A DNA stretch of 45,228 nucleotides. Source: an uncultured Phycisphaeraceae bacterium (GTDB lineage Bacteria; Planctomycetota; Phycisphaerae; Phycisphaerales; UBA1924). Made by a program: the position numbers and the translations under genes. Below, in pieces: positions 25,940 to 42,307 of the stretch. Below the pieces are notes generated by a model, which made no database searches, was not told the origin of the DNA, and saw only the letters and a program-made list of their open reading frames with translations. Location: the NCBI GenBank assembly GCA_964459825.1, contig CAYWOF010000001.1:1-45228 (forward strand), given 5' to 3'. Within the stretch, counting starts at the first letter, position 1, and every line of letters begins with the position of its first letter.

Positions 25940-28189
25940 ATGCGCATCGTGACCGCAAGTCTAGCCGCCGTTGCCGGCCTGGTCGCCGTGGCCACCGGCG
26001 ATCCACCGGAGCCGACACCGTACTTCTTCCTCTGGGCCGCCCCAGAAGCGGGTGGCTACGCTGGCATGACCGACTTCGCTTCGCAGATCGTGCGGGTCAA
26101 CATCGCGTTGGCGGCGAACGACACGCCCGAAGAGGCGGCCGCCGCCGTGGCAGCCGCTGCCCACGACCAGATCGAAGCCGGGGTCACCGATCCGGACCAC
26201 ATCTGCATCCTGCTCCAGAACTTTGGCACGAAGGACTCGCTCGGGAAGCCGACCTGCTTCTGGCACAGCGACGATGATCTCGAGGAGCCACTCAGCCAGT
26301 TCACGAACTGGGAAAACAGTGACTTCCGATACATGCAGCCCTGGATGAACAACGCCCGTCCGATCGTGAAGGAATGGATGGAGGATTTCGTCACCGCGCT
26401 GGCCTACGAGATCAGCCAGGACCCCACACTAGAAGCGCCCGCAAGGTTCCACTACGACACGGAGGCATACATAAGTGGTTGCTGCGTCTTGGGTTACACG
26501 AAGGCCCTCGAAGCGGCCGCCCAGGATGACCGCTGGGACGAGGAACCGCTCCCCGGCACCGTCGATGTGACCATGGCGAGCCTCTACAGCGAGGCTCGTG
26601 GGGCGTACGGGTGGGGGAACGGGACGACGACTCCCATCCTGGATCTTCTGCAGGAGGAGGAGGCCCCCAACTCTGACGCTAACCGACCGCTCTTCATCTG
26701 GTACTACGCCATCTGCCAGGCGGCCCTTGACCAAGTCATGCTCGAGTGTGCCTACTCGGTGATCAAGGACGAGTGGCCCAGCTGCAAGGTCAGCAACTAC
26801 TACCACTGCAACACCGATGGCGGGTTGGACAACTTCGGGTGGCACAGCACGCGGGATCATGAGTCCTCAGGGCAGTCGGATCGGGTGGCTCGGCGCACAT
26901 CCGTCCGCGCGGGGGCGGAGATGTACGGGGAGGGCGCCAAGCTCCTGTGGAACGATATCGAAGTCGAGGACCCGGAGTACCGCAGCCTCTGGCAGACCCA
27001 CACGGGCGTCGCGTCGGGCGACTTCTCCTCCCCGGTCCTCTATCCGTATCACCCGAACCACCGCTCTCTCGTGGTCACGGGCCAGGGCACGCCGCTGGAT
27101 CGGTACAACTACTACCTCAGGGACCAGATTACCGAGACCTGGCCCGTCGCGACGGATTCGTGGGTCATGCTGGACTATGCGCGGCGGTGGGTGGAGGCCA
27201 TCCTCAACACGCCGGACGGGCACGGCTACGCCGAGATCATGCCCTGGCTCTGGATGCCCGATGAAACCCGCCCGCTAGGGCAGAACTCCTCCTATCCGCC
27301 GAGCACGTTCGAAGGCCTGGCGGACCTCCGCCAGGTCCTGGCCATGCTGCGCGCCAAGCGCACCACCGAGGCGATGCTCTGGTGGAACCACACCGTCCAG
27401 TACCCGGAATGGACGACGATCCTGGAAGTCATGGAACTGGTCTACACGCCGCAGCTGGACTGGGCCCACGTGCTCGAAGGCACTGGGCCCGACCCGGTGG
27501 ACCCCGACATCCTCCGCTACACCCTGCGCGCGACCTCGCTCGAGGATGAGGTGGTGGAAGTCGAATCCGTCGAGGTGGGCAACTACGAGCAGGTGGCGCT
27601 CTGGGTCAAGTTCAATTACCTGGACGACTGGGAGAACCGCCAGCCGCCGATCCTGAACCTGGAGTGCTCTGTCAGCCCCGATGAGGGCGATGCGAACGGC
27701 GTGCGCGGCTTTATCTACCTCGCCGACCAAGAGAACGATCCCATCGACTGGCAGCAGGAGATGGGCCCCGTGTTCGACGACTTCGGCTTCGAGGGCAGCG
27801 GCTTCGGCTACTTCGCGCCCAGCTTCGAGGACGAGGAGCGCGATTGGTACGAGACCCGCCGCTCGTTTCCGCTCAGCACCAATGATTACATCAGTCCGTA
27901 CGATGGCTCGTTGTGGGTGCAGATCGTCCTTCGTGATGAGGGACCGTTCACGGCCCGCTTCGACCTGACGCAACTGATCGGCACCCCGCCGCTGCAAGCC
28001 GATTGCGGGGAGTGCGCGAGCCGCGCCCAGGGAGCGGACTTCGACCACTCGCAGAGCGTGAACCTGACCGACCTGCTCGCTTTCCAGGCCGCCTACGCCG
28101 CCGGCATGCCCTCCGCGGACCAGAACTTCGACGGGCAGGTCACGCCCCAGGACCTCGCCATCTTCGGCATCAAGTACAACAACCCGTAG
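25940..28189 (+). CDS. Large acidic, Trp/Tyr-rich secreted protein of unknown function with a degenerate dockerin-like C-terminus
   Basis: Internal ATG 25940 of track ORF 25880..28189, preceded by gaaaggag. Signal peptide MRIVTASLAAVAGLVAVATG. I recognise no family for the roughly 700-aa body. C-terminus: DFDHSQSVNLTDLLAFQAAYAAGMPSADQNFDGQVTPQDLAIFGIKY. GC is visibly lower: 33/60 in the line starting 26281, against 44/60 in the line starting 29221. Confidence 0.8.
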   Translation: MRIVTASLAAVAGLVAVATGDPPEPTPYFFLWAAPEAGGYAGMTDFASQIVRVNIALAANDTPEEAAAAVAAAAHDQIEAGVTDPDHICILLQNFGTKDSLGKPTCFWHSDDDLEEPLSQFTNWENSDFRYMQPWMNNARPIVKEWMEDFVTALAYEISQDPTLEAPARFHYDTEAYISGCCVLGYTKALEAAAQDDRWDEEPLPGTVDVTMASLYSEARGAYGWGNGTTTPILDLLQEEEAPNSDANRPLFIWYYAICQAALDQVMLECAYSVIKDEWPSCKVSNYYHCNTDGGLDNFGWHSTRDHESSGQSDRVARRTSVRAGAEMYGEGAKLLWNDIEVEDPEYRSLWQTHTGVASGDFSSPVLYPYHPNHRSLVVTGQGTPLDRYNYYLRDQITETWPVATDSWVMLDYARRWVEAILNTPDGHGYAEIMPWLWMPDETRPLGQNSSYPPSTFEGLADLRQVLAMLRAKRTTEAMLWWNHTVQYPEWTTILEVMELVYTPQLDWAHVLEGTGPDPVDPDILRYTLRATSLEDEVVEVESVEVGNYEQVALWVKFNYLDDWENRQPPILNLECSVSPDEGDANGVRGFIYLADQENDPIDWQQEMGPVFDDFGFEGSGFGYFAPSFEDEERDWYETRRSFPLSTNDYISPYDGSLWVQIVLRDEGPFTARFDLTQLIGTPPLQADCGECASRAQGADFDHSQSVNLTDLLAFQAAYAAGMPSADQNFDGQVTPQDLAIFGIKYNNP
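28037..28186 (+). other. Degenerate twin EF-hand dockerin-like module (coding segment)
   Basis: Loops DFDHSQSVNLTD and DQNFDGQVTPQD keep D/N at loop positions 1, 3, 5 and 12. Each is followed by a short amphipathic helix (LLAFQAAY, LAIFGIKY). Confidence 0.6.
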
Positions 28190-28238: not shown

Positions 28239-28348
28239 GCTTGCTGTGGTGCGCCGAACAAGGCGCGTGACCAGAAGGTGCAACTCCTCTGGGGGCCCTG
28301 GTGGCGGGAACCTTGAGTTCATCGCCGTCAGGCGGGTACCCTTCTCGT

Positions 28349-28987
28349 ATGTCCGAGGCCGTGCCCCCGCCGCTCGACGAGGTCCTCCGGGCGTACCTCG
28401 CCGGGCGCGATGCTCCCTGCCCCCGCTGCGCGTACAACCTCCGCGGTTGCGCGGCCCAAGTCTGCCCCGAGTGCGGCGTGCCCCTCTCGCTCGCCATCGC
28501 CCCGGCCCAGGCCGATCGCCGGCTCGTGCTCCTGCTGGCCCTCATGCTCGGGTGGGTGGCCCTCGCCGCCTCGGTCGAGACCTACCGGGCCCAGGCGCTG
28601 GCCCGGCGCGAGGCATACTCGACCGGGTGGATCCAGTTCCAGACGACCTCGACGAGCCCGATCTTGACCGTGCCCGCCAGCGGGCAGATCACCATCCAGG
28701 CTCCGACGGTGTCCATGACCGGTCCCGGCGCTCAGCTGAGAGCCTCACGGATCATGCTCGGCGGCGTGACCCCCTGGGGACCCAACTGGGCGGTGGTCCG
28801 CTGGCAGTCGTGGACCCATCTGGTCGTCTGGGGAGTCCTCGCGCTCCTGGCCCTCATCGCACTGGCCGGCCTGGCTCGCCTGCGGCACCGCGCCACGGGA
28901 CCACGTCGATTCCTGCGGTTGGCCATCGGGCTGTTCGTGGCGTTCGCGGGTGTGAGCCTGCTCTTCCGCGTTCCCCTTCTGACCTGA
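28349..28987 (+). CDS. Membrane protein with N-terminal CxxC...CPECG zinc ribbon
   Basis: Internal ATG 28349 of track ORF 28301..28987. Sequence reads MSEAVPPPLDEVLRAYLAGRDAPCPRCAYNLRGCAAQVCPECGVPL, then TM LVLLLALMLGWVALAASV, an extracytoplasmic segment of about 90 aa, and two more TM helices (LVVWGVLALLALIALAGLA; LAIGLFVAFAGVSLLF). Confidence 0.7.
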   Translation: MSEAVPPPLDEVLRAYLAGRDAPCPRCAYNLRGCAAQVCPECGVPLSLAIAPAQADRRLVLLLALMLGWVALAASVETYRAQALARREAYSTGWIQFQTTSTSPILTVPASGQITIQAPTVSMTGPGAQLRASRIMLGGVTPWGPNWAVVRWQSWTHLVVWGVLALLALIALAGLARLRHRATGPRRFLRLAIGLFVAFAGVSLLFRVPLLT

Positions 28988-29143: not shown

Positions 29144-30400
29144 ATGTACCGAGGTCCAATGGCGCCGGTGGGTGTGATGATGATCAGCGCGGGCGTGGCC
29201 CTCGGTGCACCACCCTCCTTCACGGGCGTGGGGGACCTGCCCGGAGGATCGACCGCCAGCTTCGTCAACGCCCTCTCCGCCGACGGCTCGGTCGCGGTGG
29301 GGCGGTCGGGCTCGGCGAACGCGACCAACCCCAGCGGCTGCTGCGAGGCGTTTCGCTGGACGCAGGCGGGCGGTATGGTGCCCCTGGGCGACCTGCCCCT
29401 CGGAGCGTTCGAGTCCGAGGCGATGGACATCGCCCACGATGGGACCGCCATCGTCGGCCAGGCCCACATCGGCGTCGATATCGGTTTCCGCTGGATGCAG
29501 GCGACCGGCCTCATCCAGCTGCCGGAACTCCAGGGCGGCGGGCTCGGGGGCGTGATCGTGGGCGCCTGCTCCGCGGACGGCTCGATCATCGTCGGCTCGG
29601 ACCAGGGTCCCAACGGACGGGGAGCCTTCATCCTGACGACCGGCCACGCCTTCGCCCTCCCCATGGGCGACCTCCCCGGCGGGATCTTCCGTTCCGAGGC
29701 CCTGGCCGTCTCCGACAGCGGCTGGGTCGCCGCCGGTTCGAGCACGTCGGGCAGCGGCACGGAGGCGTTCCGCTGGTCCAACGAGACCGGGATGCAGCCC
29801 CTCGGCTCCCTCGGGGGCTCGCCGTTCGAGAGCGTCGCCAACGGCATCTCCGGGGATGGCGCGGTCATCGTCGGGCGGGCCCGCTCGCCCCTGGGGACCG
29901 AGGCCTTCCGCTGGACGCTCGCGTCCGGGATGGTGGCGCTCGGCGATCTTCCGGGGGGCATCACGTCGAGCGAGGCCTGGGACGCGAACGCCGACGGCTC
30001 GATCATCGTGGGCACGGGCGCGGGCGCCGGCGGCCAGCGGGCGTTCATCTGGGACCCGGTCCATGGCGTGCGCGACCTGCGCGATGTGCTCGTGGGCGAG
30101 CTGGGCCTGAATCTGAGCGGCTGGACCCTCACCAGCGCCCGCGCCGTGACCCCCGACGGTCGCACGATCGCCGGGCATGGCGTCAACCCCGGCGGCGCCA
30201 CCGAGGGGTGGGTCGCACACCTTGGCTCCGCCTGCTATCCCGACTGCGACGGGTCGGGCGCGCTCGATGTGGGCGACTACATCTGCTTCCAGACGCGCTT
30301 CGCCCTCGGCGACCCCTACGCCGACTGCGATGGGAACGGCGTGCGCAACGTGAGCGATTACGTCTGCTTCCAGACGCATTTCGCGGTCGGATGTCGCTGA
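29144..30400 (+). CDS. Secreted HAF-repeat protein with Cys-rich (GC-type) dockerin-like C-terminal module
   Basis: Internal ATG 29144 of track ORF 29063..30400, after ggagat. Signal peptide MYRGPMAPVGVMMISAGVALGAPP. HAF-type repeats: A.AlSaDGSvaVG.s......eAFRWt...GMv.LGdLPGG. Tail: CYPDCDGSGALDVGDYICFQTRFALGDPYADCDGNGVRNVSDYVCFQTHFAVGCR. Confidence 0.85.
   Translation: MYRGPMAPVGVMMISAGVALGAPPSFTGVGDLPGGSTASFVNALSADGSVAVGRSGSANATNPSGCCEAFRWTQAGGMVPLGDLPLGAFESEAMDIAHDGTAIVGQAHIGVDIGFRWMQATGLIQLPELQGGGLGGVIVGACSADGSIIVGSDQGPNGRGAFILTTGHAFALPMGDLPGGIFRSEALAVSDSGWVAAGSSTSGSGTEAFRWSNETGMQPLGSLGGSPFESVANGISGDGAVIVGRARSPLGTEAFRWTLASGMVALGDLPGGITSSEAWDANADGSIIVGTGAGAGGQRAFIWDPVHGVRDLRDVLVGELGLNLSGWTLTSARAVTPDGRTIAGHGVNPGGATEGWVAHLGSACYPDCDGSGALDVGDYICFQTRFALGDPYADCDGNGVRNVSDYVCFQTHFAVGCR
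30233..30397 (+). other. Six-cysteine twin EF-hand dockerin-like module, copy 1
   Basis: CYPDCDGSGALDVGDYICFQTRFALGDPYADCDGNGVRNVSDYVCFQTHFAVGCR. Confidence 0.85.
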
Positions 30401-30631
30401 GCGATCTCGCGAAACGGTCTCGGTTTCGAGAACCTCCGCACTTTGGCGTGGTTGTGCGCCGGCGGTGACTCTCCGCCCTGAGAATGGCGTGAGATCACGC
30501 CGGTGGAGGCGGGCTTTTCGCAACCGGGCAGACGCGGACTCGGTATAGGCGCGTTGCCCCGCGATCCCGGCCTGGGGCTGGGGACGGGGTGTGCGTTCCA
30601 GTTGGGTGTCCTGTCACGCGGAGCAGGAGCC

Positions 30632-33235
30632 ATGGGCGCGAGAAGCCGAACGGTTCCGGTCCTCCGTTGGTGTCCAGTCGCCACGCTGGCGTTGGCGGGC
30701 GCTGCCTCGTGCGCGAACGGGCAATGCGAGCGGTGGCTGCCGGGCGGGGCATTCCCGGGGGTGGCGTCCCGCGGCGTCCCGTACCAGCCGCTGGTCGAGG
30801 CGGTGGGGACGTGGGATCCCGATGGTCCAGGGCCCACGCCCGAGCGGCTGGTCATCGGCGGGTGGGTTCATGCGGTCGGGGATGTTCCCGCCAACGCCGT
30901 GGCCGCGTGGGATGGCGTGCGCTGGGCCTCCCTTCCGGGGCTCGAGGGACAGGCGTACGACCTGCTCGACTTTGGTGGGGACCTGATGGTCGCCGGCTCG
31001 CTCCAGATCCCGCCGGGAACCGCCTCGTGGGGAGTGGTGCGCTGGACAGGGGCGGGATGGGAGGCGCTGACCGGCTTGATCGGCAACGCCACAGCGCTGG
31101 TCGAGTACGGGTCGTTCTTGGCAGCCGCGGGTGGACAGGGTGTCCAACTCTGGAACGGCTTAGGGTGGTCCTTCTCGATCGGGCAAGTGCAGGGCACCTT
31201 CCCTGAGCTCGGCGCGCTGGCCGCTCACAACGGACTCCTCGTCGCCGGCGGCGCCTTTGATCGTATCGGTGGGACGCCGGCCGCGAATGTTGGGGCTTGG
31301 AATGGAACCGCGTGGCTGCCGCTCGGCTCGGGAGTAAACGGGCGCGTCCGTGCGCTGGAGACGGTGGGACCGGACCTGATCGTCGGGGGATCGTTCACGA
31401 CGGGCGGGGGCGTGCCGACCGACTATCTGGCGCGATGGGATGGGAGCCAATGGCACCCCATGGGGCTGGGCGAGACGGGCCCCGCGGTTCGCGCCGTCGA
31501 GGCCATCGGCGTGCGCGACGGCAGGCTCGTGGTCGGCGGCACGTTCCTGACCGCCGGCGGAGTGCCAGGAACGGACTTCCTCGCCCAGTGGGACGGGACC
31601 CACTGGAGCCCCGTTGGGGCCGGCGTCGACGGGGGCGTCTACGCGCTGTGCGAGTTCGGCAACGATCTGATCGTCGGAGGCCGCTTTGCGCGGGCCGGCG
31701 TGCGCACGGCCTTCGGGATCGCCCGCTGGGATGGAGAGACACTGGACCGGGTGGGCTCCGGCGCCGATGGGCCGATCTTCGCGATGGCCGAGTACGCCGG
31801 GCGTCTCGTCGCGGGGGGCGACTTTCTTACCATGGGGGACACCCAGGCCGCGCATCTGTCCGCCTGGGACGGGATCGAGTGGGCGGCCATGGGCACGGGC
31901 ACCAATGGACCGGTCTACACCCTGGGCACCCACGCCGGGGGACTCGTGGCGGGCGGCGCCTTCACGCTGGCCGATGGCGCGCCCGCCAGCCGTATCGCGA
32001 CTTGGAACGGCGCCGGCTGGAATCCGCTGGGCTCAGGCGTCAACGGAGCCGTCGCGGCGCTCGCGGACCGGGCGGGGCAGTTGATCGCTGGCGGGTCGTT
32101 CGGGGTGGCAGGGGGCGGTCCCGTTGGCCGGATCGCCGCGTGGGACGGGGCGACGTGGTCCGGGCTGGGGACAGGCCTCAACGGCACGGTGTACGCCCTC
32201 ACCCTTCACCAGGGGGACCTCTTTGCCGGGGGGGTGTTCACGCAGGCGGGTGGCGCTCCCGCGCACCGGGTGGCGCGCTGGGACGGAGTCGCTTGGCACC
32301 CGCTCGGCGACGGCATCGCGAGCCCCGGCGCGATCGTGGCGACGATGGAGAGTTACGCGGGTGACCTCATCGTCGCGGGCGCGTTCACGGATGCGGGAGG
32401 CATCCCGGCCGGCAACATCGCCCGCTGGGATGGAACGCGCTGGTCCTTCCTCGGTGCCGGCATGACGAACGTGGGAACCGCGATCGATCCCATCGTGAAT
32501 GGAATGACCGTTCGCGATGGGCGACTCGTCGCGGTGGGGTGCTTCAATCGTGCGGAGGCTGCGGTCGTGGGTGGCGTGGCGGAGTGGGACGGCGCCTCCT
32601 GGACCGGGCTCGGCACCGGGCTTCAGAGCTACGCCTCACCGGTCGCCCATGCCGTCGGCGCACTCGGGCCCGAGCTTGTCGTGGGGGGCGATTTCATGTT
32701 CGCCGGGGGGGACCCGGAGACCTATGAGGGGATCGTCGTGGCCAACGCCTTCGCTCGGTGGACCGCGAGCGGGGCGCCGTGGCTCGCTCGACAGCCGATG
32801 CCGATGACGGCCTACACCGGGGGCGGGGTCGCCCTTTCCGTGGCCGTGCCGCCGGGCTACGGGCCGCTGACCTACCAGTGGCGCCGCGAGGGGATGCCGG
32901 TCGTCAACGGACCGGGCGGCGCCTCGCCCGGTGGGGCAACGGTCGCCGGCGCGGACACATCCACGCTCACGCTCACCGGCGTGCGTCCCTCGGACGCGGG
33001 CGCCTACACCGTCACCGTGGCCAACTCCTGCGGCCAGGCGACGAGCCAGCCGGCCCCGCTCTCGGTTCTCTGCTACGCCGACTGCGATGGAAGCGCCACA
33101 CTGACCATCGGCGACTTCATCTGTTTCCAGACGCGGTTCGCCCTCGGCGATCCGTACGCGGACTGCGATGCCGACGGCCAGCGCACCGTGGCGGACTACG
33201 TGTGCTTCCAGACCCGATTCGCCCTCGGGTGCTGA
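30632..33235 (+). CDS. Secreted multi-blade beta-propeller repeat protein + Ig-like domain + Cys-rich dockerin-like module
   Basis: Internal ATG 30632 of track ORF 30503..33235, after aggag. About 12 repeats of the type A.WDG..W..LG.G.NG.V.AL....G.L.AGG.F..AGG.PA..IA.W. Ig-like segment: LTYQWRREGMPV...LTLTGVRPSDAGAYTVTVANSCGQATS. Tail: CYADCDGSATLTIGDFICFQTRFALGDPYADCDADGQRTVADYVCFQTRFALGC. Confidence 0.85.
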   Translation: MGARSRTVPVLRWCPVATLALAGAASCANGQCERWLPGGAFPGVASRGVPYQPLVEAVGTWDPDGPGPTPERLVIGGWVHAVGDVPANAVAAWDGVRWASLPGLEGQAYDLLDFGGDLMVAGSLQIPPGTASWGVVRWTGAGWEALTGLIGNATALVEYGSFLAAAGGQGVQLWNGLGWSFSIGQVQGTFPELGALAAHNGLLVAGGAFDRIGGTPAANVGAWNGTAWLPLGSGVNGRVRALETVGPDLIVGGSFTTGGGVPTDYLARWDGSQWHPMGLGETGPAVRAVEAIGVRDGRLVVGGTFLTAGGVPGTDFLAQWDGTHWSPVGAGVDGGVYALCEFGNDLIVGGRFARAGVRTAFGIARWDGETLDRVGSGADGPIFAMAEYAGRLVAGGDFLTMGDTQAAHLSAWDGIEWAAMGTGTNGPVYTLGTHAGGLVAGGAFTLADGAPASRIATWNGAGWNPLGSGVNGAVAALADRAGQLIAGGSFGVAGGGPVGRIAAWDGATWSGLGTGLNGTVYALTLHQGDLFAGGVFTQAGGAPAHRVARWDGVAWHPLGDGIASPGAIVATMESYAGDLIVAGAFTDAGGIPAGNIARWDGTRWSFLGAGMTNVGTAIDPIVNGMTVRDGRLVAVGCFNRAEAAVVGGVAEWDGASWTGLGTGLQSYASPVAHAVGALGPELVVGGDFMFAGGDPETYEGIVVANAFARWTASGAPWLARQPMPMTAYTGGGVALSVAVPPGYGPLTYQWRREGMPVVNGPGGASPGGATVAGADTSTLTLTGVRPSDAGAYTVTVANSCGQATSQPAPLSVLCYADCDGSATLTIGDFICFQTRFALGDPYADCDADGQRTVADYVCFQTRFALGC
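33071..33232 (+). other. Six-cysteine twin EF-hand dockerin-like module, copy 2
   Basis: CYADCDGSATLTIGDFICFQTRFALGDPYADCDADGQRTVADYVCFQTRFALGC. Confidence 0.85.
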
Positions 33236-33250
33236 GCGAGGAGATGGCCC

Positions 33251-35605
33251 ATGAGAATCCCCGCGCTCGCCGGCCTCCTGGCGGCTTTGGTGGCCGTGCC
33301 CGCCGGCGCCCAGCCGTGCGCACCACGCTGGTCCGATGATCTCTGGGCGCACGCGCCGCCAGGGGACGTTCGCGCCCTGGCGGTGATCGATCTCGGTCAA
33401 GGGCCCGCGCTGACCATCGGCACGATCGGTGCCGAGCAGGAGGGGTGGATCGCACGCTACGACGCTTCCCGCCTGCGAGTCATCGGGCACGCCGAGGGGC
33501 AGATGCCGGGCGGTAACGCGTCGGGCGTCTATGCGCTCACGTGCTTCGATGATGGCGCGGGCGCGGCGGTCTTCGCGGGTGGCGTCTTCACCACGGTCGA
33601 CGGCGTGCCCGCGAGCGGCATCGCCCGATGGAGCGGGGGTGCGTGGCAGCCGCTCGGCGCCGGTACCGACCAGGGCGTCCGTGCCTTGGCCGCCTACGAC
33701 GGTGGCGCCGGCCCGGCTCTCTACGCGGGCGGGTTCTTTCATGCGGCGGGAGGAGTCCCGGCTTCCCGCGTGGCCCGATGGAATGGGGCGGAGTGGGCGG
33801 CGCTCGGAGAGGGCCTGGCCGGAGGGGGAACCTCGTCCGGGGCCACGACCTGGCCCGTCGCGTACGCGCTCACCGTCCATGACTTCGGCGCCGGCCCCGT
33901 GCTGTGCGTCGGGGGGAACTTCGACCTCGCCGGGGGCATCGCCGCGACCAACGTGGCCGCCTGGAACGGCTCGACGTGGAGCGCCCTGGGCCGGGGTCCC
34001 ACCTACAGCCCCACCGAGCACGGGAGCGTGCTCGCCCTCACGGTGTTCGACGCCGGTTCCGGGCCCGAGCTCTACGCGGGCGGGCGCGTTCGCCTCGGCG
34101 AGGTACCCTGCGTGCGCGCGGCGCGCTGGGATGGCGCGGCCTGGCAGCCCGTGGGATCCTGCCTCACGGGGCAATGGATCAGCGCACTCGCCCCGGGTGA
34201 CGTCGGCGCGGGTGCAGCCCTGTACGCCGGCCTCGTCACGGGGACGAGCAGCGGCCTGGTGCACCGGCTCGACGGCGCGCAGTGGACATCGCTCGGGACG
34301 GCCGCCCCGACGAGCCAGTGCCGGGCGCTTGCCGCGTACGACGATCACGCCGTGCAGCTCTACTGCGGAGGGGATTTCGGAACCCTTGCGGGCGCGTTCA
34401 CGCCGCGCCTGGGGCGATGGAACGGGTCCGCCTGGACGCCGATCCCGGCCCCGGGTTGCCTCGATGAACCCGATCGCCTCAAGGTCCTCGACACGGGGCC
34501 CGGGCCGGAGCTCTACTTGATCGGTGCCAGCCGGGTCGCCGGCATCATCGTCCCCGGCCTGGCTCGCTTCGATGGCGCCGCCTGGCACCCCGTCGGGCCG
34601 CCCGGGCAGCTCATCTCACCCAGCGAGCTGGAGGTGTTCGACGATGGCGCCGGGCCGCTCCTGTACGCCTCCGGGAGCCTGGACTTCGGGAGCGTTCACT
34701 ACCGTGTGGCGTGCCTGCGCAAGAACGGCTGGGAGGGTGTGGGCCCCTCGACGCACACCCTGCTCGAGAGTTCGCCGCGCGTGCTCCGGACCTTCGACGA
34801 TGGACTGGGCCCGAGGCTCTTCGCGGGCGGTGCGCTCGTCGGCGGCGTGCTCGCGTGGGATGGTGTGGCTTGGACGCGCCCCGGAGGTGGGCTGCCCGGT
34901 TTCTCCGGCGGCTCCGGGGTCCGCGACCTGGAGCCCTTCGATGCCGGATCGGGCCTCCGTCTGTACGCCGCGTGGGTCAACGGATTCGCCCGATGGGATG
35001 GCGTCGCGTGGGAGACTCTCCCGGAGTGGATTCCCAGCATCACCGACCTCCAGACCTTCGATGACGGGAGCGGTCCGGCGCTCTTTGCGGCTCGCGCGTC
35101 CACGGTGGACTCGGTCCTCCGCTTCGACGGCGCCGCCTGGACCGTCGTGGCGAGTGTGAGCGATCACTCGGTCATCGCCCTGTCGCCCTTCGATGACGGT
35201 TCGGGTCCAGCCCTGTACGCATCGGGACACTTCGGCTCCATTGGTGGCGTCGAGGCTCGCGGCATCGCGCGCTGGCACGCGGGGAGTTGGAGTCCCCTCG
35301 GCTCCGGCCTTCTGGGCCCGGGCGAGACCCTGACCGCCTTCGGGCTCCCGCAGCCCGCGCTCTGGGTCGCTGGTTCCTTCGAGATCGCGGGCGGCCAATC
35401 CGCCGGCCATCTCGCCCGCTGGATCGGCTGCCCGACCTGCTACCCCGACTGCGATGGCTCGGGAACGCTCGACGTGGGCGACTACATCTGCTTCCAGACG
35501 AAGTTCGCCCTCGGCGACCCCTACGCCGACTGCGATGCGAACGGCATCCGCAACGTGGCCGACTTCATCTGCTTCCAGACGGCGTTCGCCCTCGGGTGCG
35601 CCTGA
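33251..35605 (+). CDS. Secreted beta-propeller repeat protein + Cys-rich dockerin-like module
   Basis: Track ORF of 784 aa, starting 15 nt after the previous stop. Signal peptide MRIPALAGLLAALVAVPAGAQP. Repeats are of the type FDDG.GPALYAGG.F...GGV.A..IARW.G..W..LG. Tail: CYPDCDGSGTLDVGDYICFQTKFALGDPYADCDANGIRNVADFICFQTAFALGCA. Confidence 0.85.
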   Translation: MRIPALAGLLAALVAVPAGAQPCAPRWSDDLWAHAPPGDVRALAVIDLGQGPALTIGTIGAEQEGWIARYDASRLRVIGHAEGQMPGGNASGVYALTCFDDGAGAAVFAGGVFTTVDGVPASGIARWSGGAWQPLGAGTDQGVRALAAYDGGAGPALYAGGFFHAAGGVPASRVARWNGAEWAALGEGLAGGGTSSGATTWPVAYALTVHDFGAGPVLCVGGNFDLAGGIAATNVAAWNGSTWSALGRGPTYSPTEHGSVLALTVFDAGSGPELYAGGRVRLGEVPCVRAARWDGAAWQPVGSCLTGQWISALAPGDVGAGAALYAGLVTGTSSGLVHRLDGAQWTSLGTAAPTSQCRALAAYDDHAVQLYCGGDFGTLAGAFTPRLGRWNGSAWTPIPAPGCLDEPDRLKVLDTGPGPELYLIGASRVAGIIVPGLARFDGAAWHPVGPPGQLISPSELEVFDDGAGPLLYASGSLDFGSVHYRVACLRKNGWEGVGPSTHTLLESSPRVLRTFDDGLGPRLFAGGALVGGVLAWDGVAWTRPGGGLPGFSGGSGVRDLEPFDAGSGLRLYAAWVNGFARWDGVAWETLPEWIPSITDLQTFDDGSGPALFAARASTVDSVLRFDGAAWTVVASVSDHSVIALSPFDDGSGPALYASGHFGSIGGVEARGIARWHAGSWSPLGSGLLGPGETLTAFGLPQPALWVAGSFEIAGGQSAGHLARWIGCPTCYPDCDGSGTLDVGDYICFQTKFALGDPYADCDANGIRNVADFICFQTAFALGCA
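35438..35602 (+). other. Six-cysteine twin EF-hand dockerin-like module, copy 3
   Basis: CYPDCDGSGTLDVGDYICFQTKFALGDPYADCDANGIRNVADFICFQTAFALGCA. Hand alignment to 30233..30400 gives 26 mismatches in 168 nt, including a 34-nt identical run (30299-30332 = 35504-35537). Confidence 0.85.
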
Positions 35606-35681: not shown

Positions 35682-35999
35682 ATGGCCACCGCCGAGCCCA
35701 CCCTCTCCGCCGCCGATGTGCGCAAGGTCGCGCGCCTGGCGCGCCTGGAACCCAGCGATGCCGAGGTCGAGGCCTATCGCATCCAGCTCTCGGCGGTCCT
35801 GGGCTACGTGGAGCGCCTGCGTGCGCTCGACCTCGCCGGCGTCGCCCCGCTGGTGCACGTCGGGGAATCGGTCAATCGGCTCGACCCCGACGAACCCGGC
35901 CCCACGCTCGACCCCCAGGTCCTCATGCGCATGGTCCCGGACGCCTGGCCGCCGTTCATACGGGTGCCCAAGGTGATCGATGAGGGAGCCGGGGCATGA
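35682..35999 (+). CDS. gatC: Asp-tRNA(Asn)/Glu-tRNA(Gln) amidotransferase subunit C
   Basis: Internal ATG 35682 of track ORF 35454..35999, 105 aa. Sequence MATAEPTLSAADVRKVARLARLEPSDAEVEAYRIQLSAVLGYVERLRALDLAGVAPL is the classic GatC pattern. Confidence 0.9.
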   Translation: MATAEPTLSAADVRKVARLARLEPSDAEVEAYRIQLSAVLGYVERLRALDLAGVAPLVHVGESVNRLDPDEPGPTLDPQVLMRMVPDAWPPFIRVPKVIDEGAGA

Positions 36000-36511
36000 G
36001 CCCCGATCCCGCCCGAGCGCCCTTCGAGCGCCGGCACGCCGGCTTCCTCATCAGCGACGACCCCCGGCGCATCGACGTGGCGGCGGCCCACGCCTACCTG
36101 GCACGCAGCTACTGGGCTCCGGGCATCCCGCTCGAGGTCGTGCGCCGGTCCATCGAGAACTCGCTCTGCTTCGGCGCGTACGACGAGGCCCACGGCGGCC
36201 GGCAGGCCGGCTTCGCCCGCGTGATCACGGACCGGGCGACGTTCGCCTACATCGGCGATGTCCACGTGCTCGAGGCGTACCGCGGACGCGGGCTCTCGAA
36301 GGGCCTCATGGAGGCGATCGTCGCCCACCCGGACCTCCAGAACCTCCGGCGCTGGATGCTCATCACCCGCGACGCGCACGGCCTCTACCGCCGGTTCGGG
36401 TTCGTGCCCGCGAGCAAACCCGAGAACATCATGGAGATCCGCGACCCCGATGTGTACCGGCGCCTGGCGACCTCCGCGCCGGCGGTGGCGGCGCCTCTCC
36501 CGGGCGCCTGA
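35996..36511 (+). CDS. GNAT family N-acetyltransferase
   Basis: Track ORF of 171 aa. ATGA overlap with the gatC stop (35996-35999). Acetyl-CoA binding-type motif: VHVLEAYRGRGLSKGLMEAIV...AHGLYRRFGF. Confidence 0.85.
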   Translation: MSPDPARAPFERRHAGFLISDDPRRIDVAAAHAYLARSYWAPGIPLEVVRRSIENSLCFGAYDEAHGGRQAGFARVITDRATFAYIGDVHVLEAYRGRGLSKGLMEAIVAHPDLQNLRRWMLITRDAHGLYRRFGFVPASKPENIMEIRDPDVYRRLATSAPAVAAPLPGA

Positions 36512-36519
36512 GGACACTC

Positions 36520-38028
36520 GTGCTCGACTCGGCCATCGACACCACCCGGTCCATCCGCGAGCGCCGCACCTCCGCGCTCGACGCCACGCGCGCGGCCCTC
36601 GCGCGGGTCGATGGCGCCAACCCGGGCCTCAACGCCTTCCTCCAGGTGTTCCACGATCGCGCCCTCGACGGCGCCAGGGCCCTCGGCGATCGCCTCGGGC
36701 GCGCCGAGCGGGCCGGCCCCCTCGCCGGTGTGCCGATCGCCCTCAAGGACAACCTCTGCCTGGCCCACGGGCGGACGACCTGCGCCTCGCGCATGCTCGA
36801 GAACTACGAGTCCCCCTTCACCGCCACCGCCGTGCAGCGCCTCATCGATGCCGGCGCGATCATCGTGGGCAAGACCAACATGGACGAGTTCGCCATGGGG
36901 TCGAGCGGCGAGAACTCCGCCTTCGGCCCCACGCGCAATCCGTGGGACCCGACGCGCGTCCCCGGCGGGTCGAGCTCGGGTTCGGGCGCGGCCGTCGCCG
37001 CTGGCATCGTCCCCATCGCCCTGGGCTCCGACACCGGCGGCTCGGTCCGCCAGCCCGCGGCCCATTGCGGCCTCGTCGGCCTCAAGCCCACCTACGGCCG
37101 CGTCTCCCGCTACGGGCTCGTCGCCTTCGCCTCCAGCCTCGACCAGATCGGCGTCCTGAGCCGCACGGTCGGCGATGCCGCCCTGGCCCTGTCCGTCATC
37201 GCGGGCCACGACCCGCTCGACGCCACCAGCGCCGACCAACCCGTGCCGGACCTCGGGACCGACCTCGACACGCCGCTCGATCGGCTCACGCTCGCCATCC
37301 CGCGCCAGGCCCGCTCCCCCGCCAACCACCCGGCCGTCGCCCGCGCGCTGGACGACGCCATCGGCCTCTACCAGTCCCTGGGCGCCCGGGTGATCGACAT
37401 CGACCTGCCCCACGCCGACCACGGCATCGCGGCCTATTACATCGTCGCCACCGCCGAGGCCAGCTCCAACCTCGCCCGCTACGACGGCATCCGCTATGGC
37501 CGGCGTGCGGCCCCAACCCACACTCCGAACGCGGGTCACGGCGCACGGCACTCGCTCGAGGCCATCTACGCCGCCAGCCGCTCCGCCGGTTTCGGACCGG
37601 AGGTCCAGCGCCGCATCATGCTCGGCACGCATGTGCTCAGCAGCGGCTACTACGAGGCCTACTACAACACGGCCCTCAAGGTGCGGCGCCTCATCCAGCG
37701 CGACTTCGAGGCCGCCTTCCGGGGCGGTCCCGGCATCCCCGCGTGCGATGCGATCCTCATGCCGGCGACGCCCGGCCCTGCCTTCCGCATCGGCGAGAAA
37801 GTCGCGGACCCGCTGACCATGTACCTCGAGGACATCTACACCGTCGGCGTCAACCTCGCCGGCCTGCCGGCCCTGACGTTCCCCGCGGGGTTGGCCGAGG
37901 AGGCCGGCACGGCGCTCCCCGTCGGGCTGCAGCTCGTCGCCCCGGCCTGGCGCGAGGACCGGCTCCTCCGCATCGCGCGGATGTTCGAGCGCCAAGGGCC
38001 GGTGTTCGATCCGACGCTTCCGGGTTGA
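36520..38028 (+). CDS. gatA: Asp-tRNA(Asn)/Glu-tRNA(Gln) amidotransferase subunit A (amidase signature)
   Basis: GTG 36520, in frame with track ORF 35980..38028 and following gagga. Sequence reads NAFLQV...GVPIALKDNLC...GKTNMDEFAMGSSGENSAFGPTRNPWD..RVPGGSSSGSGAAVAAG..PIALGSDTGGSVRQPAAHCGLVGLKPTYGRVSRYGLVAFASSLDQIG. Confidence 0.93.
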   Translation: MLDSAIDTTRSIRERRTSALDATRAALARVDGANPGLNAFLQVFHDRALDGARALGDRLGRAERAGPLAGVPIALKDNLCLAHGRTTCASRMLENYESPFTATAVQRLIDAGAIIVGKTNMDEFAMGSSGENSAFGPTRNPWDPTRVPGGSSSGSGAAVAAGIVPIALGSDTGGSVRQPAAHCGLVGLKPTYGRVSRYGLVAFASSLDQIGVLSRTVGDAALALSVIAGHDPLDATSADQPVPDLGTDLDTPLDRLTLAIPRQARSPANHPAVARALDDAIGLYQSLGARVIDIDLPHADHGIAAYYIVATAEASSNLARYDGIRYGRRAAPTHTPNAGHGARHSLEAIYAASRSAGFGPEVQRRIMLGTHVLSSGYYEAYYNTALKVRRLIQRDFEAAFRGGPGIPACDAILMPATPGPAFRIGEKVADPLTMYLEDIYTVGVNLAGLPALTFPAGLAEEAGTALPVGLQLVAPAWREDRLLRIARMFERQGPVFDPTLPG

Positions 38029-38650: not shown

Positions 38651-39826
38651 TCAGCCGCCCAGTGAGGCGATGGCCTCCTGTGCGCCCGCGATAAGTGCCT
38701 GGCCCTGGGCCTCCGAGAGCGTGCCCTGTCGGACGAACTTCTCGATCTTGCGGATGAAGTTGTTGAGCTTGTCGATAGCCGCCTGGTTGTTCCCGAGCGC
38801 GATCAGGGCCTGGGCATCGTCGAGCAGGTTTCCGACGGAGTTGGCCTGCGATGCGGTGAGGTATCCCTGGTTCACCAGGACCTGAACACGGGTCTGCAAC
38901 TGTGTCACGTCCTCGGCCGGAGAGTACGGGGCCGTGGTGATTCCAACGCTGTGGTGGAAGCCCGATGCAACGGCAAAGAACCCGCCCGTCGTTGGTGTTC
39001 CGGACACCTGCCCGTTGTAGTCGTTGCCCCAGGCGACGAGGGTTCCGTCCGCCCGCCAAGCGATGCCGTGCGTGTCGCCGGCGGAGACTCCGACAAAGCC
39101 GGCGCCCGACGGTGTTCCGCTCACTTGGCCCTGGGCATTACCCCCCCACGCGGCGAGACTTCCGTCCGCGCGAAGTGCCAAGACCCAGTAGTCCGCCGCG
39201 GAAAGGCCCACGAAGTCGTTGCCCGTCGGCGTGTTGGCGATGACCGTGCCCACTCCGCTGTAGTTGATGTCGCCCCACGTCACGAGGCTCCCGTCTGCCC
39301 GAAGCGCGACCGTAAAGGCAACACCGGACGAAAGGGCGACAAAGTCGTTCCCAGGTGGCACTCCGAATACCGTGGGACCAAAATCACCCCCCCAACGCAC
39401 AAGGCTGCCGTCAGGCTGGATTGCTACCGCCTGGATGGCCTGCAGCGAGATCGCGATGAACCCGCCGTTCGGAGGGGCGTGGAGTGTGTAGCCCGGGTGC
39501 GCATTCCAGAAGACGATGCTTCCATTGGCGCGTGTGGCCACGGCCCCTGAGCCCCCGACGACCACTCCGACGAAGTCGTTGCCCGCGGGTACGACGTTGC
39601 CATGGAAGTCCGTACCCCAGGACACGAGGCTGCCATCGGCCCGGATGGCCACACTGTGGTACTTGCCGCAGGCGACAGACACGAAATCGTCACCACTGGG
39701 CGTGCCACTCACCTGCCCCCCGTTGTCCAGCCCCCAGGAAACGAGCCGGCCCTGTGCGAGCACCAGTGAGGGCGCCGCGCCAGCACCGACGCCCAACGCA
39801 ACAACAACGAGTCCCAGCGTCCTCAT
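38651..39826 (-). CDS. Secreted RCC1-repeat beta-propeller protein with a C-terminal helical FIMAH-like domain
   Basis: Track ORF of 391 aa. Signal peptide MRTLGLVVVALGVGAGAAPSLVLAQG. There are 6-7 repeats of the type G.DFV.vs.G..H.vAlRADGSLV.WG.n..GQVSGTP. The C-terminal LQTRVQVLVNQGYLTASQANSVGNLLDDAQALIALGNNQAAIDKLNNFIRKIEKFVRQGTLSEAQGQALIAGAQEAI matches my memory of the FIMAH helical domain. Confidence 0.85.
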   Translation of the reverse strand: MRTLGLVVVALGVGAGAAPSLVLAQGRLVSWGLDNGGQVSGTPSGDDFVSVACGKYHSVAIRADGSLVSWGTDFHGNVVPAGNDFVGVVVGGSGAVATRANGSIVFWNAHPGYTLHAPPNGGFIAISLQAIQAVAIQPDGSLVRWGGDFGPTVFGVPPGNDFVALSSGVAFTVALRADGSLVTWGDINYSGVGTVIANTPTGNDFVGLSAADYWVLALRADGSLAAWGGNAQGQVSGTPSGAGFVGVSAGDTHGIAWRADGTLVAWGNDYNGQVSGTPTTGGFFAVASGFHHSVGITTAPYSPAEDVTQLQTRVQVLVNQGYLTASQANSVGNLLDDAQALIALGNNQAAIDKLNNFIRKIEKFVRQGTLSEAQGQALIAGAQEAIASLGG

Positions 39827-39967: not shown

Positions 39968-42307
39968 TTAGGAGCAGCTCAGCGCAAACCGCGTCTGGAA
40001 GCAGATGTAATCGTTGACGTTCCGCACGCCGTTCCCGTCGCAGTCCGCGTACGGATCGCCCATGGCGAACTTGGTCTGGAAGCAGATGTAGTCGTTGACG
40101 TTCAGCGTGCCGCCGCCGTCGCAGTCGGCGTAGCACGGGTTCCCGAGCACGAAGTCGGGCATGAGCGTCACCGGGCGCGTGCCATCATCGGCCACGATCC
40201 GGAGCCGGTCGGTCCCGCCCGCGTGCCCGAGCGTGACGGGGATCTCGAACACGCCGCCGCCCAGCGATGCCGGCGTGCCGAACGTCGCCTTGCCCGCGCT
40301 CCCCGGGCCGTGTCCGACCGTTAGCGACACGATCGGGGCCGTGGCCGCCATCCCGCGCCAGTCGCGCAGCTCCACCCGCAGGGTGCCGGGGGACGGGCGG
40401 GTCGCCAGCGACTGGATGGCGTCGGGCCGGTTCTCCAGCGCCGTGCGCCACGGCCCGTACAACGCCTGGAGCTGCGCCACCGGGTCCGGCGCGGGCGCCT
40501 GCTGGTTGGCCACGTTGAACCCCATGAAGTAGTCGCCCTGGCCCGTGCCCAAGCCGTTCGTGAAGGTCCCGTCGCCGAGGTTCTCGACCACGAACACGCT
40601 CGCCCCGGCGCTGGCCAGCGCCGCATCCAGGTCCCCGTCTCCGTTGTAGTCCGCCAGCGCCATGCTGGTGATGCCCGAGGCGACCGTGTACACGCCGGGT
40701 TGCAGCTCGAACTGCCCGCTCCCCACACCCTTCATGACCGCCAGGCGCCCCGCCGTCAGCCCCAGCAGCAGGTCGTCGGCTCCGTCGCCCGTCAGGTCCC
40801 CGAGCGCCATGTCGTTCACCGCGGCCGGGACCTGCGTGGCCACGGGGATGGCGAACGTCCCGTTGCCGGAGTTCATGTAGATCGCCACGGCCGCGGGCGC
40901 GCCCTGCCCGCCCACGATCAGATCGGGCCCGTTCAGCCCATCCAGGTCCGCGGCGAGCACCTTCGTGGGCAGCCCCACCGTGAAGATGTCCGGGGCCGGG
41001 GTGAAGGTCCCGTTCCCGGCGCCGAGGTGGACCACGAGCTTCCCGTTGGACCGGGCCGCCGCGATGATGTCCGTGTGCCCGTCCCCATTGACGTCGCCGA
41101 CGGCGACCGATCGCGGGTCGCTCCCGCCGGTCAGGAGCGGGCCCGGCGTCAGGCCCCCGGCGCCGTTGGAGAGCAGCACCGAGAGGGTGTTGCCGGTCTG
41201 GTTGGCCGTCACGATGTCGGCGGCGTGCTGGTGGTCGAAGTTCCCCACCGCCAGCGCAATCGGCGAGGGGCCGGTCGCGTAGCTGGTCGCCCCGCCGAAC
41301 TGCCCCGGGCCCGTCCCCGGGAGCACGGAGACCGAGTTGCCCCCGTAGTTGGCGGTGACCACGTCCGCCACCCCATCCCCGGTCAGGTCCGCCAGCGCGA
41401 CGCCCCGCGCGCCGGTGCCCCCGGCGAAGTGCGTGGGCAGGGCGAACGTCCCGAAGCCCGCCCCCGCCGGGGCGTTGTTGCTCAGGATGGAGACGTTGTT
41501 GCTGGCCGAGTTGGCCGTCAGCAGGTCGATCCGCCCGTCATTGTTGAAGTCGGCCGCGACCAGCGCATAGGGCGCCGACCCGGCGCGGTACGCCCCGTGC
41601 GTTCCATCCCGGTCCCCCGTCCGGGTGATGAGCATGTACGCGATGTGCGCCGACTTGGTGAAGCTCGCCGGCGGGCACCCGCACCCCGTGGGGTTTCCGG
41701 GGCAGGAGCAGCGCCCGTCCCCCCCGGTCACCCGCGCCGCCTCCATCGAGGCCATCAGCTTCGCCGCCAGGTCGCCGGGCGTGTTGATGGCGGCTTGCAC
41801 GGCCGCATCCACCACGCACGCCCCGGTCAGGATGTTCCCCTGGATCGCGTAGGCGATCGTCCCCGGCTCTCCGTGCGGACCGGTGTAGGCGAACGAGCCG
41901 GTCTGTCCGCCGGCCCAGGCGTTGGCCCCGGTTCCCGAGAACGTCGCGGTCCGGCCCTGCGTGTCCGCGATGCCGTACTGCCGGGTCTGGTGCCCGGTGT
42001 CGAACGTCGCCAGCCCGGTGATGATGTCCGCGGGCGCGACGCCCAGGGCAAGCCGGTCGCGGATGAACGTCCGGTTCTGCTGCGTGCTGTCCACGAACGA
42101 CTGGGCCGTCGCCGCCCCGATCCCGGTGAGCATCACCGGCGTGTTGGCCCGCAGGTCGAACCCGGTCAGGCAGGTGGCGCTTCCCGCGGCGATCTCGCCC
42201 GTCCGCGTGTCGATCAGGATGATGGACCACGTGGCCCGGGCGGAGGGAGCCCCCGCCGCCGCCGCCGCCGCCAGAGCCGCCGCCGCAACCACACGCCGCT
42301 GTGCCAT
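39968..42307 (-). CDS. Secreted DUF1028 (Ntn-hydrolase-like) domain + FG-GAP/VCBS repeats + Cys-rich dockerin-like module
   Basis: Internal ATG 42307 of track ORF 39968..42610, after ggagg, 779 aa. Signal peptide MAQRRVVAAAALAAAAAAGAPSARA, then TWSIILIDTRTGEIAAGSATC (DUF1028-type N-terminus). FG-GAP-like repeats: ADFNNDGRIDLLTAN, ADLTGDGVADVVTAN, GDVNGDGHTDIIAA, ADYNGDGDLDAALA. Tail: CYADCDGGGTLNVNDYICFQTKFAMGDPYADCDGNGVRNVNDYICFQTRFALSCS. Confidence 0.85.
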   Translation of the reverse strand: MAQRRVVAAAALAAAAAAGAPSARATWSIILIDTRTGEIAAGSATCLTGFDLRANTPVMLTGIGAATAQSFVDSTQQNRTFIRDRLALGVAPADIITGLATFDTGHQTRQYGIADTQGRTATFSGTGANAWAGGQTGSFAYTGPHGEPGTIAYAIQGNILTGACVVDAAVQAAINTPGDLAAKLMASMEAARVTGGDGRCSCPGNPTGCGCPPASFTKSAHIAYMLITRTGDRDGTHGAYRAGSAPYALVAADFNNDGRIDLLTANSASNNVSILSNNAPAGAGFGTFALPTHFAGGTGARGVALADLTGDGVADVVTANYGGNSVSVLPGTGPGQFGGATSYATGPSPIALAVGNFDHQHAADIVTANQTGNTLSVLLSNGAGGLTPGPLLTGGSDPRSVAVGDVNGDGHTDIIAAARSNGKLVVHLGAGNGTFTPAPDIFTVGLPTKVLAADLDGLNGPDLIVGGQGAPAAVAIYMNSGNGTFAIPVATQVPAAVNDMALGDLTGDGADDLLLGLTAGRLAVMKGVGSGQFELQPGVYTVASGITSMALADYNGDGDLDAALASAGASVFVVENLGDGTFTNGLGTGQGDYFMGFNVANQQAPAPDPVAQLQALYGPWRTALENRPDAIQSLATRPSPGTLRVELRDWRGMAATAPIVSLTVGHGPGSAGKATFGTPASLGGGVFEIPVTLGHAGGTDRLRIVADDGTRPVTLMPDFVLGNPCYADCDGGGTLNVNDYICFQTKFAMGDPYADCDGNGVRNVNDYICFQTRFALSCS
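39971..40135 (-). other. Six-cysteine twin EF-hand dockerin-like module, copy 4
   Basis: CYADCDGGGTLNVNDYICFQTKFAMGDPYADCDGNGVRNVNDYICFQTRFALSCS. Confidence 0.85.

Follow-up and report, generated by a model that had tools for sequence, protein, structure and literature searches.

A six-cysteine dockerin-like module at the C-terminus of unrelated secreted proteins in a Phycisphaeraceae bacterium

Introduction

Why should unrelated secreted proteins of one bacterium end in nearly the same 54 residues, and what could such an ending be for? The question is raised by a contig of an uncultured Phycisphaeraceae bacterium of the Planctomycetota (GenBank assembly GCA_964459825.1, contig CAYWOF010000001.1), which was analysed over its full length (positions 1 to 45,228); this whole stretch of 45,228 nucleotides is referred to as the window. 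A sequence-only reading of the window had picked out four secreted proteins with unrelated passenger domains and a common C-terminal module, in which two calcium loops are accompanied by six cysteines (the six-Cys module), and had likened it to the dockerins. The results presented here show that the module is a real, abundant and under-annotated variant of a known dockerin type. As for its role, we favour, with about even confidence, a C-terminal dockerin-like domain of two calcium-loop-helix repeats, stapled by predicted disulfides, that would act as a docking tag for a partner specific to each genome.

Results and discussion

A common C-terminus on unrelated passengers

All four 54-residue strings were found exactly, on passengers of the kinds that had been described: HAF repeats, a Rax2/DUF5122 propeller with immunoglobulin (Ig) domains, a second propeller-like protein, and DUF1028 with FG-GAP (coordinates are collected in Table 1). 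A hidden Markov model (HMM) of the module, a check proposed by the sequence-only reading, gave exactly six matches in the six-frame translation of the window, besides the large database census described below. Four of them are the six-Cys modules (94-98 bits, E about 1e-28 to 1e-30), each followed by a stop codon after 0-1 residue. The other two are the tails already suspected of being Cys-free or degenerate, on the proteins encoded at 18252-22013 (-) and 25940-28189 (+), with 61 and 24 bits, respectively. These matches exceed chance by far. The gene calls on record for the contig agree with four tagged-open-reading-frame (ORF) starts; the start of the propeller and Ig gene is uncertain, being either a GTG at 30503 or an ATG at 30629, the latter not used by the record.

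The protein sequences of the four six-Cys modules are 72-83% identical, and an alignment of their DNA contains numerous synonymous differences, which indicates that the module is conserved by selection on the protein and not by very recent copying. Recent gene conversion is contradicted by the same differences and was rejected as the main cause of the likeness within the window, although over a longer time it may have contributed. A hydrophobic N-terminus resembling a signal peptide was recognised by eye in five of the six tagged proteins. The N-terminus of the protein encoded at 18252-22013 (-) (window 21900-22013) has a 'MEPLEPRHLLA' motif and the sequence '…SLRSVMEPLEPRHLLATVFWDGG', without a classic hydrophobic signal peptide. 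Motifs of the form 'LExRxLL' recur at the N-termini of giant planctomycetal surface proteins.

Two calcium-loop repeats with the layout of a dockerin

The module consists of two halves, each a 12-residue loop followed by a helix. Conservation was assessed in a set of 409 distinct modules, made up of those of the window, of 80 related loci and of about 180 database proteins. Loop position 12 is D in 98% of the modules in both repeats. Position 1 is D or N (79% and 16% in repeat 1, 79% and 20% in repeat 2), position 3 is N or D (51% and 37% in repeat 1, 54% and 41% in repeat 2), and position 5 is mostly D, S or N (48%, 37% and 6% in repeat 1; 40%, 41% and 11% in repeat 2). The final two columns of the module are G (89%) and C (91%). 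The predicted calcium ligands (loop positions 1, 3, 5 and 12) show the conservation of type I dockerins, and the module would be expected to bind calcium.

An AlphaFold2 model of module 1, based on an alignment of 34 sequences, has a mean predicted local distance difference test (pLDDT) score of 93.6. Its helices, assigned by DSSP, cover residues 13-24 and 40-52, each from loop position 10 onward; loop 1 is not preceded by an entering helix, and the linker contains a 3-residue helix only. The lack of an entering helix corresponds to the twice-repeated F-hand of dockerins and not to the helix-loop-helix of EF-hands, and two tandem F-hand repeats, as in type I dockerins, are present in the sequence as well as in the model. 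The twin-loop anatomy proposed from the sequence is thus upheld by both the model and the 409-module conservation. When the model was compared with the PDB using Foldseek, all 36 matches were dockerins or calmodulin-type EF-hand proteins, none of them significant (no E <= 0.001). The best match was 8x39_B (E 0.65, template modelling (TM) score 0.44, with a range of 0.37-0.44 over the matches), and other dockerins matched were 6kgc_B, 1ohz_B, 4fl4, 2vn5_D, 5k39 and 5m2s. A sequence-profile search of the PDB with the module returned only an EF-hand protein (E 0.36). Judging from sequence and model, the module is soluble, acidic and helical.

A peripheral subtype of the GC-type dockerin family

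An NCBI model for a GC-type dockerin domain, which the sequence-only reading had mentioned, does exist and aligns to the modules. This is NF041540, the NCBIfam domain model 'GC-type dockerin domain-anchored protein', with 67 positions and a cutoff of 29 bits. It aligns to all six tails of the window, to most of them below the cutoff. With whole proteins, the scores are 27.2 bits for the HAF-repeat protein, 24.4 for the propeller and Ig protein, 24.9 for the propeller-like protein and 25.2 for the DUF1028 protein, all below the cutoff. The protein encoded at 18252-22013 scores above it (43.3 bits; 50.7 for the isolated Cys-free tail), as do the six-Cys modules when isolated (30.2-40.3 bits), and the degenerate tail of the 25940-28189 protein stays below (21.5-27 bits). 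The score does not fall when the six Cys are all replaced, and the top scores (56.7-64.1 bits) belong to longer tails with two Cys, 'C…GC', aligned from the first to the last Cys, which indicates that NF041540 is centred on the two-Cys form. The alignments span profile positions 1-67, from C1 to C6 or the final Gly-Cys, and the initial Cys and terminal Gly-Cys that bound the domain, as far as its definition can be read from the model's own alignments, are both found in the module. By these profile alignments the module is homologous to the NF041540 GC-type dockerin at the domain level, and the six-Cys form is a peripheral subtype of this family without a model of its own. No mention of NF041540, its name or the domain was found in the literature searched, in agreement with the earlier remark that no described receptor or assembly mechanism is known for it.

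Even with the limit relaxed to E <= 10, Pfam Dockerin_1 (PF00404, threshold 22.9 bits) does not match the four window modules; a related six-Cys module reaches 16.2 bits, the Cys-free tail 20.3 and the degenerate tail 20.0, all below the threshold. Neither EF-hand_1 nor EF-hand_7 of Pfam matches the six-Cys modules of the window, the threshold of EF-hand_1 being passed by the Cys-free tail only (32.5 bits). Since Pfam misses the module and the NCBI model scores it just below its cutoff, it is unannotated in most records, and at NCBI tagged orthologues go under the names 'DUF1028 domain-containing' or 'VCBS repeat-containing'.

Type I clostridial dockerins (PF00404; 1OHZ chain B, 2VN5) have in common with the module two segments of about 22-27 residues with a calcium loop and a helix, loop residues 1, 3 and 5 that are D or N, a D as loop residue 12, a usually C-terminal position on varied enzymes, and species-specific variation that extends to residues 10 and 11 of the two repeats (PMC8063739). 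The six-Cys modules of the window differ from them in escaping Dockerin_1, in a fold likeness that falls short of significance and in having no cohesin found for them. Their host, moreover, belongs to a Gram-negative, aerobic-type lineage of the Planctomycetota, and most passengers are not carbohydrate-active enzymes.

Six cysteines and their predicted pairing

All six Cys are kept in 34 of 34 sequences of the subtype, and the full pattern (CCCCCC) is present in 325 of the 409 modules. Only C1 and C6 are kept (CxxxxC) in 8 modules and in 10 tails of DUF1028 orthologues, C2 and C3 are lost jointly with C1, C4, C5 and C6 kept (CxxCCC) in 2 modules and 16 orthologue tails, and 4 internal copies are without just C1 and C6. 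In arrays of three and four repeats, each repeat has its own Cys pair, and C1 and C6 occur once per array. Taken together, these patterns of co-loss point to disulfides C1-C6, C2-C3 and C4-C5, of which the first would join the termini and the other two would each link loop position 2 to position 15 of its own helix. To our knowledge no disulfides have been described in clostridial dockerins; the module would have three.

The six Cys had been called invariant, which holds within the subtype and fails across the DUF1028 orthologues. The 120 homologues closest to the DUF1028 protein have the same architecture (about 760-830 residues), are spread across Phycisphaerae and all end in a twin calcium-loop tail, with 0 Cys in 44 of them, 1 in 10, 2 in 10, 4 in 16, 5 in 4, 6 in 32 and 8 in 4. 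Several of these tails are assigned to Pfam Dockerin_1 in precomputed annotation, at the same place in the protein. The disulfides thus appear as lineage-variable accessories, while the calcium-loop residues are constant. The sequence-only reading had itself named poor conservation of Cys and calcium-loop residues across homologues as evidence that would count against it; the former do vary and the latter are retained.

Among the 32 orthologue tails with six Cys, 25 have the layout of the window and 7 have another. A six-Cys tail of other layout, 'CxADFDGDGxxGTDADIxAFFACLxGxCCxxC…DGD…FFxxLxGGxC', was seen in the DUF1028 orthologues P0341, P0363, P0379, P0398, P0407 and P0414. It is recognised neither by the module HMM nor by NF041540, and is a further dockerin-like subtype without a model.

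A range of 0 to 8 Cys among orthologues resembles the tuning of stability, and this is one of the points in favour of an explanation that needs no protein receptor. The module would then be a cap, stabilised by calcium and disulfides, that binds lipopolysaccharide, capsular polysaccharide, peptidoglycan or a mineral surface, or it would be purely stabilising. The failure to detect a cohesin-like partner fits this explanation as well, as does the statement that cohesins are not known for many non-cellulosomal dockerins (Peer et al., as cited in PMC6461901). We nevertheless regard it as decidedly improbable, given the distribution of genome-specific residues described below.

Abundance, placement and passengers

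Because a homologue search with the 54-residue profile gave only fragments of at most 100 residues, the census relies on an exhaustive search with the module HMM through 1.84 billion representative proteins. At E <= 1e-3 this search gave 10,126 clusters, of which 5,812 passed E <= 1e-10, with the match nearly always reaching the last residue of the protein. Among the top matches listed (143 new), 127 are six-Cys modules, 105 of which end in 'GCP', and the distance from the last Cys to the C-terminus is 0-2 residues in all 127. When GTDB species genomes were scanned with module patterns, 80 loci were recovered, all of them from Phycisphaerales or Phycisphaerae metagenome-assembled genomes (MAGs); as the patterns are narrow and recover only window-like modules, this taxonomic spread is biased. 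The 80 loci amount to 1.33 Mb with 202 modules, and 178 of 207 matches end exactly at a stop codon. At least 54 distinct modules were found in 579 kb of the MAG SJ456, and 182 of 970 ORFs, called crudely in these module-seeded loci, are tagged.

The passengers are highly diverse, with at least 61 Pfam families among 105 tagged proteins, including propellers, FG-GAP, DUF4394, S8 and M12B peptidases, RCC1 and MtrC/MtrF-like outer-membrane cytochromes. The propeller-like protein of the window is the database protein P0151, and 16 of the 17 members of its passenger family in related loci are tagged. Passengers of the same kinds occur with the module, with a PEP-CTERM-like tail or without a tail. 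In the window, a HAF paralogue at 24369-25856 (+) (TIGR02913, 56.7 bits) ends in 'IPSPGTAVVLLAPAFSRRRRRG', which by eye resembles a PEP-CTERM variant and has no Pfam match at E <= 1e-3. Upstream of it are two Pfam PEP-CTERM proteins, at 2597-3397 (+) and 3431-4408 (+), so that this genome uses two C-terminal tag systems. A tail-less paralogue of the 18252-22013 (-) protein is encoded at 42645-45155 (-), near the contig end, with 33% identity over 363 residues, and the alignment between the two stops exactly at the start of the Cys-free tail. The RCC1-repeat protein at 38651-39826 (-) ends in a FIMAH domain, not in the module, and homologues of it in other MAGs (for example L044 8948-10165, and L064) have the six-Cys module as their C-terminus.

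Because of its strictly terminal position, a second explanation has to be considered, namely that the module serves as a folded signal for sorting or secretion at the C-terminus, like PEP-CTERM or the C-terminal domain (CTD) of the type IX secretion system (T9SS), and not a reversible docking domain. It would be read by an outer-membrane translocon or by a sortase-like enzyme, which may remove it or attach the protein covalently through it. In addition to the nearly absolute placement, with 'GCP' followed by a stop codon in most modules, dozens of unrelated Sec-dependent passengers are tagged per genome, and PEP-CTERM is used in the same genome, with HAF passengers carrying either tag. PEP-CTERM/exosortase and T9SS CTD tags are likewise strictly C-terminal and found on many unrelated secreted proteins per genome. 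The module, however, has no PEP motif, no transmembrane helix, no basic or Arg-rich tail and no beta-sandwich, and its alpha-helical calcium-loop architecture is unlike any known sorting domain. Internal and tandem copies (P0040-P0053, P0047, P0121) are also ill-suited to a terminal signal. Considering these points together with the residue pattern and the gene neighbourhoods discussed below, a sorting signal seems to us unlikely.

Proteins with two to four modules, in tandem or internal, are P0040-P0053, P0047, P0121 and P0131; the three- and four-repeat arrays with a single C1 and C6 are among them, and P0047 has four two-Cys modules with Thr/Pro/Asn-rich linkers between them. Such proteins may be connectors or scaffold-like. 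In most genomes, that of the window included, minor two-Cys or Cys-free tails are present beside the six-Cys majority, giving two or three subtypes per genome, a coexistence that recalls, speculatively and by analogy, the type I and type II tiers of dockerins. The modules could also associate with themselves, as identical copies or between subtypes, and cluster the tagged proteins without a separate scaffold. Multi-module proteins as possible connectors, the two or three tail subtypes and the fact that no scaffold was found are compatible with such self-association. The multi-module proteins are, however, a small minority (about 14 among the best 150 representatives), and we know of no case in which clostridial dockerins assemble via dockerin-dockerin contacts, which makes self-association very unlikely in our view.

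Genome-specific residues on one face of the module

Docking to a partner is argued from the way in which the modules vary between genomes. Mean identity between modules is 63-81% within a genome and 44-61% between genomes, with two closely related pairs of genomes exceeding the latter range (66% and 74%), and each genome has its own module consensus, common to both halves. The mutual information with genome identity (in bits, for repeats 1 and 2, respectively) is 1.14 and 1.24 at position 10, 1.45 and 1.25 at position 11, 1.55 and 1.49 at position 14, 1.27 and 1.14 at position 18, and 0.95 and 1.11 at position 22. It is 0.00 at position 12, and the scaffold positions are fixed. Of these, 11, 14, 18 and 22 share a single helical face. 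The established determinants of cohesin specificity in dockerins are residues 10 and 11 of each repeat, and the symmetry of the repeats underlies the dual binding mode (PMC8063739). That positions 10 and 11 discriminate genomes in both repeats of the module agrees with these recognition residues, as an analogy of pattern and not as a proof of binding.

The likeness of modules within a genome, combined with discriminating positions 10, 11, 14, 18 and 22, argues for docking to a co-evolving partner. Variable positions that fall on one helical face in both repeats, as in dockerin-cohesin recognition, are not what a sorting signal would lead one to expect, even though a single reading machine would also give a consensus specific to each genome. 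Nor would the receptor-free cap be expected to have genome-specific residues at these five positions of both repeats on a fixed scaffold, and a role in stabilisation alone does not easily account for the pattern. In its anatomy, its predicted calcium ligands, its modular use at the C-terminus and its putative species-specific recognition face, the module is dockerin-like.

Under the docking proposal, the tagged proteins would be exported by Sec, and outside the cytoplasm the module would oxidise and bind calcium. It would remain on the mature protein as a docking tag and bind a genome-specific, co-evolving partner with the exposed side of both helices (repeat positions 10, 11, 14, 18 and 22). 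Docking would in this way retain or assemble dozens of hydrolases, propellers, adhesin-like proteins and cytochromes at the cell surface. The near-symmetric repeats might allow binding in either orientation, like the dual binding mode of clostridial dockerins, and the minor Cys-free or two-Cys tails of the same genome might address a second partner.

The search for a receptor

The sequence-only reading had seen no evident cohesin-like receptor, and the searches are in agreement with this. No cohesin was found among the ORFs of the window in Pfam scans, and a clostridial cohesin seed (CipA Coh2) had no match in the window plus the 1.33 Mb of related loci, this search being of low sensitivity. 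The 988 ORFs of the 80 loci and the window were also clustered, and no untagged family tracks the modules. The untagged families that do recur are generic: Ser/Thr kinase-WD40 proteins, GspE/PilB ATPases, MsbA-like ATP-binding cassette (ABC) transporters, histidine kinases and epimerases.

These two outcomes, a receptor found neither in the window nor, with the weak clostridial seed, in the related loci, and no gene family that follows the module, count against docking to a dedicated partner. So do the failure of Dockerin_1 to recognise the six-Cys modules and the lack of a significant likeness to solved dockerin structures. The C-terminal placement is also stricter than that of clostridial dockerins and suits a sorting signal equally well, and the homogeneity of modules within a genome could come from recognition by a sorting enzyme or from gene conversion. 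A sorting signal meets a difficulty of its own in the same neighbourhoods, since no sorting gene recurs beside the tagged genes, the neighbours being Ser/Thr kinases, GspE-type ATPases, ABC transporters and histidine kinases.

Three of the tagged genes are consecutive (29144-35605), which had been taken as a sign of a cargo island dedicated to surface display. The surroundings of the tagged genes are housekeeping genes, i.e. aroD/E (22124-23947), gatA (35980-38028), recO, dnaE and deoxyhypusine synthase, and no accessory gene recurs in the 80 loci, so this idea was abandoned. Considering the housekeeping flanks and the absence of a module-tracking family, the tag is best described as very frequent, with tagged genes adjacent locally by paralogy and density.

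A zinc-ribbon membrane protein encoded at 28346-28987 (+), whose CPECG ribbon family had been suggested as a source of receptor candidates, was also rejected as receptor or accessory protein, as weak homologues lie near only 4 of the 80 module loci (E 1e-10 to 1e-7, probably owing to the ribbon motif alone). A second ribbon membrane protein, at 8056-8910 (-), adjoins no tagged gene. The two have in common the motif 'CxxCxYxLxG…CPECG', N-terminal in the former and C-terminal in the latter, and neither has a Pfam or NCBIfam match.

Features of the window

The tagged proteins and their tails are listed in Table 1. The acidic protein with the degenerate tail has no Pfam family match. Its gene lies in a region where G+C falls to 0.64 (26001-28000), the window being otherwise high in G+C (about 0.70-0.73), and it may be acquired or fast-evolving. 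The deoxyhypusine synthase of the window has at most 83% identity to its counterparts in Phycisphaerae and Phycisphaerales MAGs.

Table 1 Tagged proteins and C-terminal tails in the window
Feature	Position	Strand	Evidence
HAF-repeat secreted protein, 418 aa, six-Cys C-terminus	29144..30400	+	TIGR02913 66.7 bits; start agrees with gene call on record
Six-Cys module 1, 54 aa	30233..30394	+	Exact string match; module HMM 98 bits
Beta-propeller (Rax2/DUF5122) and Ig protein, six-Cys C-terminus	30503..33235	+	Pfam Rax2, DUF5122, Ig_3, I-set
Six-Cys module 2	33071..33232	+	Exact string match; module HMM 93.7 bits
Propeller-like secreted protein, 784 aa, six-Cys C-terminus	33251..35605	+	N-terminus MRIPALAGLLAALVAVPAGAQP resembles signal peptide
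Six-Cys module 3	35438..35599	+	Exact string match; module HMM 95.5 bits
DUF1028 (Ntn-hydrolase-like) and FG-GAP protein, 779 aa, six-Cys C-terminus	39968..42307	-	Pfam DUF1028, FG-GAP_3
Six-Cys module 4	39974..40135	-	Exact string match; module HMM 95.4 bits
Repeat-rich (beta-helix-like) protein, 1253 aa, Cys-free tail	18252..22013	-	NF041540 43.3 bits
Cys-free twin calcium-loop tail DTNNDGALSINDFIQFQTLFALGSPLADLNGDGQLNINDFIAFQTLFAQG	18261..18413	-	Module HMM 61 bits
Acidic secreted protein, 749 aa, degenerate tail, region of lower G+C	25940..28189	+	
Degenerate Cys-free tail	28034..28177	+	Module HMM 23.6 bits

The gene at 4827-5714 (-) encodes a pseudopilin-like protein, whose N-terminus has a prepilin-type methylation motif (TIGR02532), and 8 copies of GspE/PilB-type ATPases were counted in the related module loci of 2 genomes; both kinds of genes are probably generic for Planctomycetota. 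At about 6900-8093 (+), within the ORF 5241-8093, there are matches to Pfam Thioredoxin_7 and Thioredoxin_2 and weak matches to DsbD/DsbH-like NCBIfam models, with a repeat-rich C-terminal half. The product is a probable secreted thioredoxin-fold protein, which could be relevant to the handling of disulfides outside the cytoplasm, and the long stretch of the ORF that precedes it is probably non-coding.

Relation to the planctosome and implications

Calcium-dependent docking has been hypothesised before in this bacterial class. The 'planctosome' proposed by Andrei et al. 2019 for the Nemodlikiaceae (Phycisphaerae) would dock secreted peptidases, including M12B reprolysin-like ones, on the outer membrane (PMC6461901). 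In addition to the class, the module has in common with it M12B and S8 peptidases among the passengers. The planctosome involves canonical Pfam cohesins and dockerins in a handful of proteins (PMC6461901), whereas the module is invisible to Pfam, putatively stapled by disulfides and present in dozens of copies per genome, and no cohesin was found for it.

A broader possibility, which we put forward tentatively and think rather less than probable, is that Phycisphaerae carry out a large-scale, cohesin-independent assembly of their surface. In each genome, secreted proteins numbering from dozens to hundreds would dock through the stapled twin calcium-loop module, and the fold of their receptor would be one that has so far no connection with dockerins. 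Specificity would be rewritten from lineage to lineage at positions 10, 11, 14, 18 and 22, and two or three orthogonal types of tail (six-Cys, two-Cys and Cys-free) would correspond to the type I and type II tiers of dockerins.

How Planctomycetota display their very large secretomes at the surface is poorly understood, and the module marks a large share of the secreted proteins of Phycisphaerales. A dedicated model of the module, a predicted disulfide map and a candidate recognition face are the usable outcome of the analysis, and they turn what was a collection of many hypothetical proteins into a tractable question, that of the docking target. If the proposal is true, a small, disulfide-locked and calcium-dependent docking pair whose specificity is private to each genome would make an attractive orthogonal toolkit for protein assembly.

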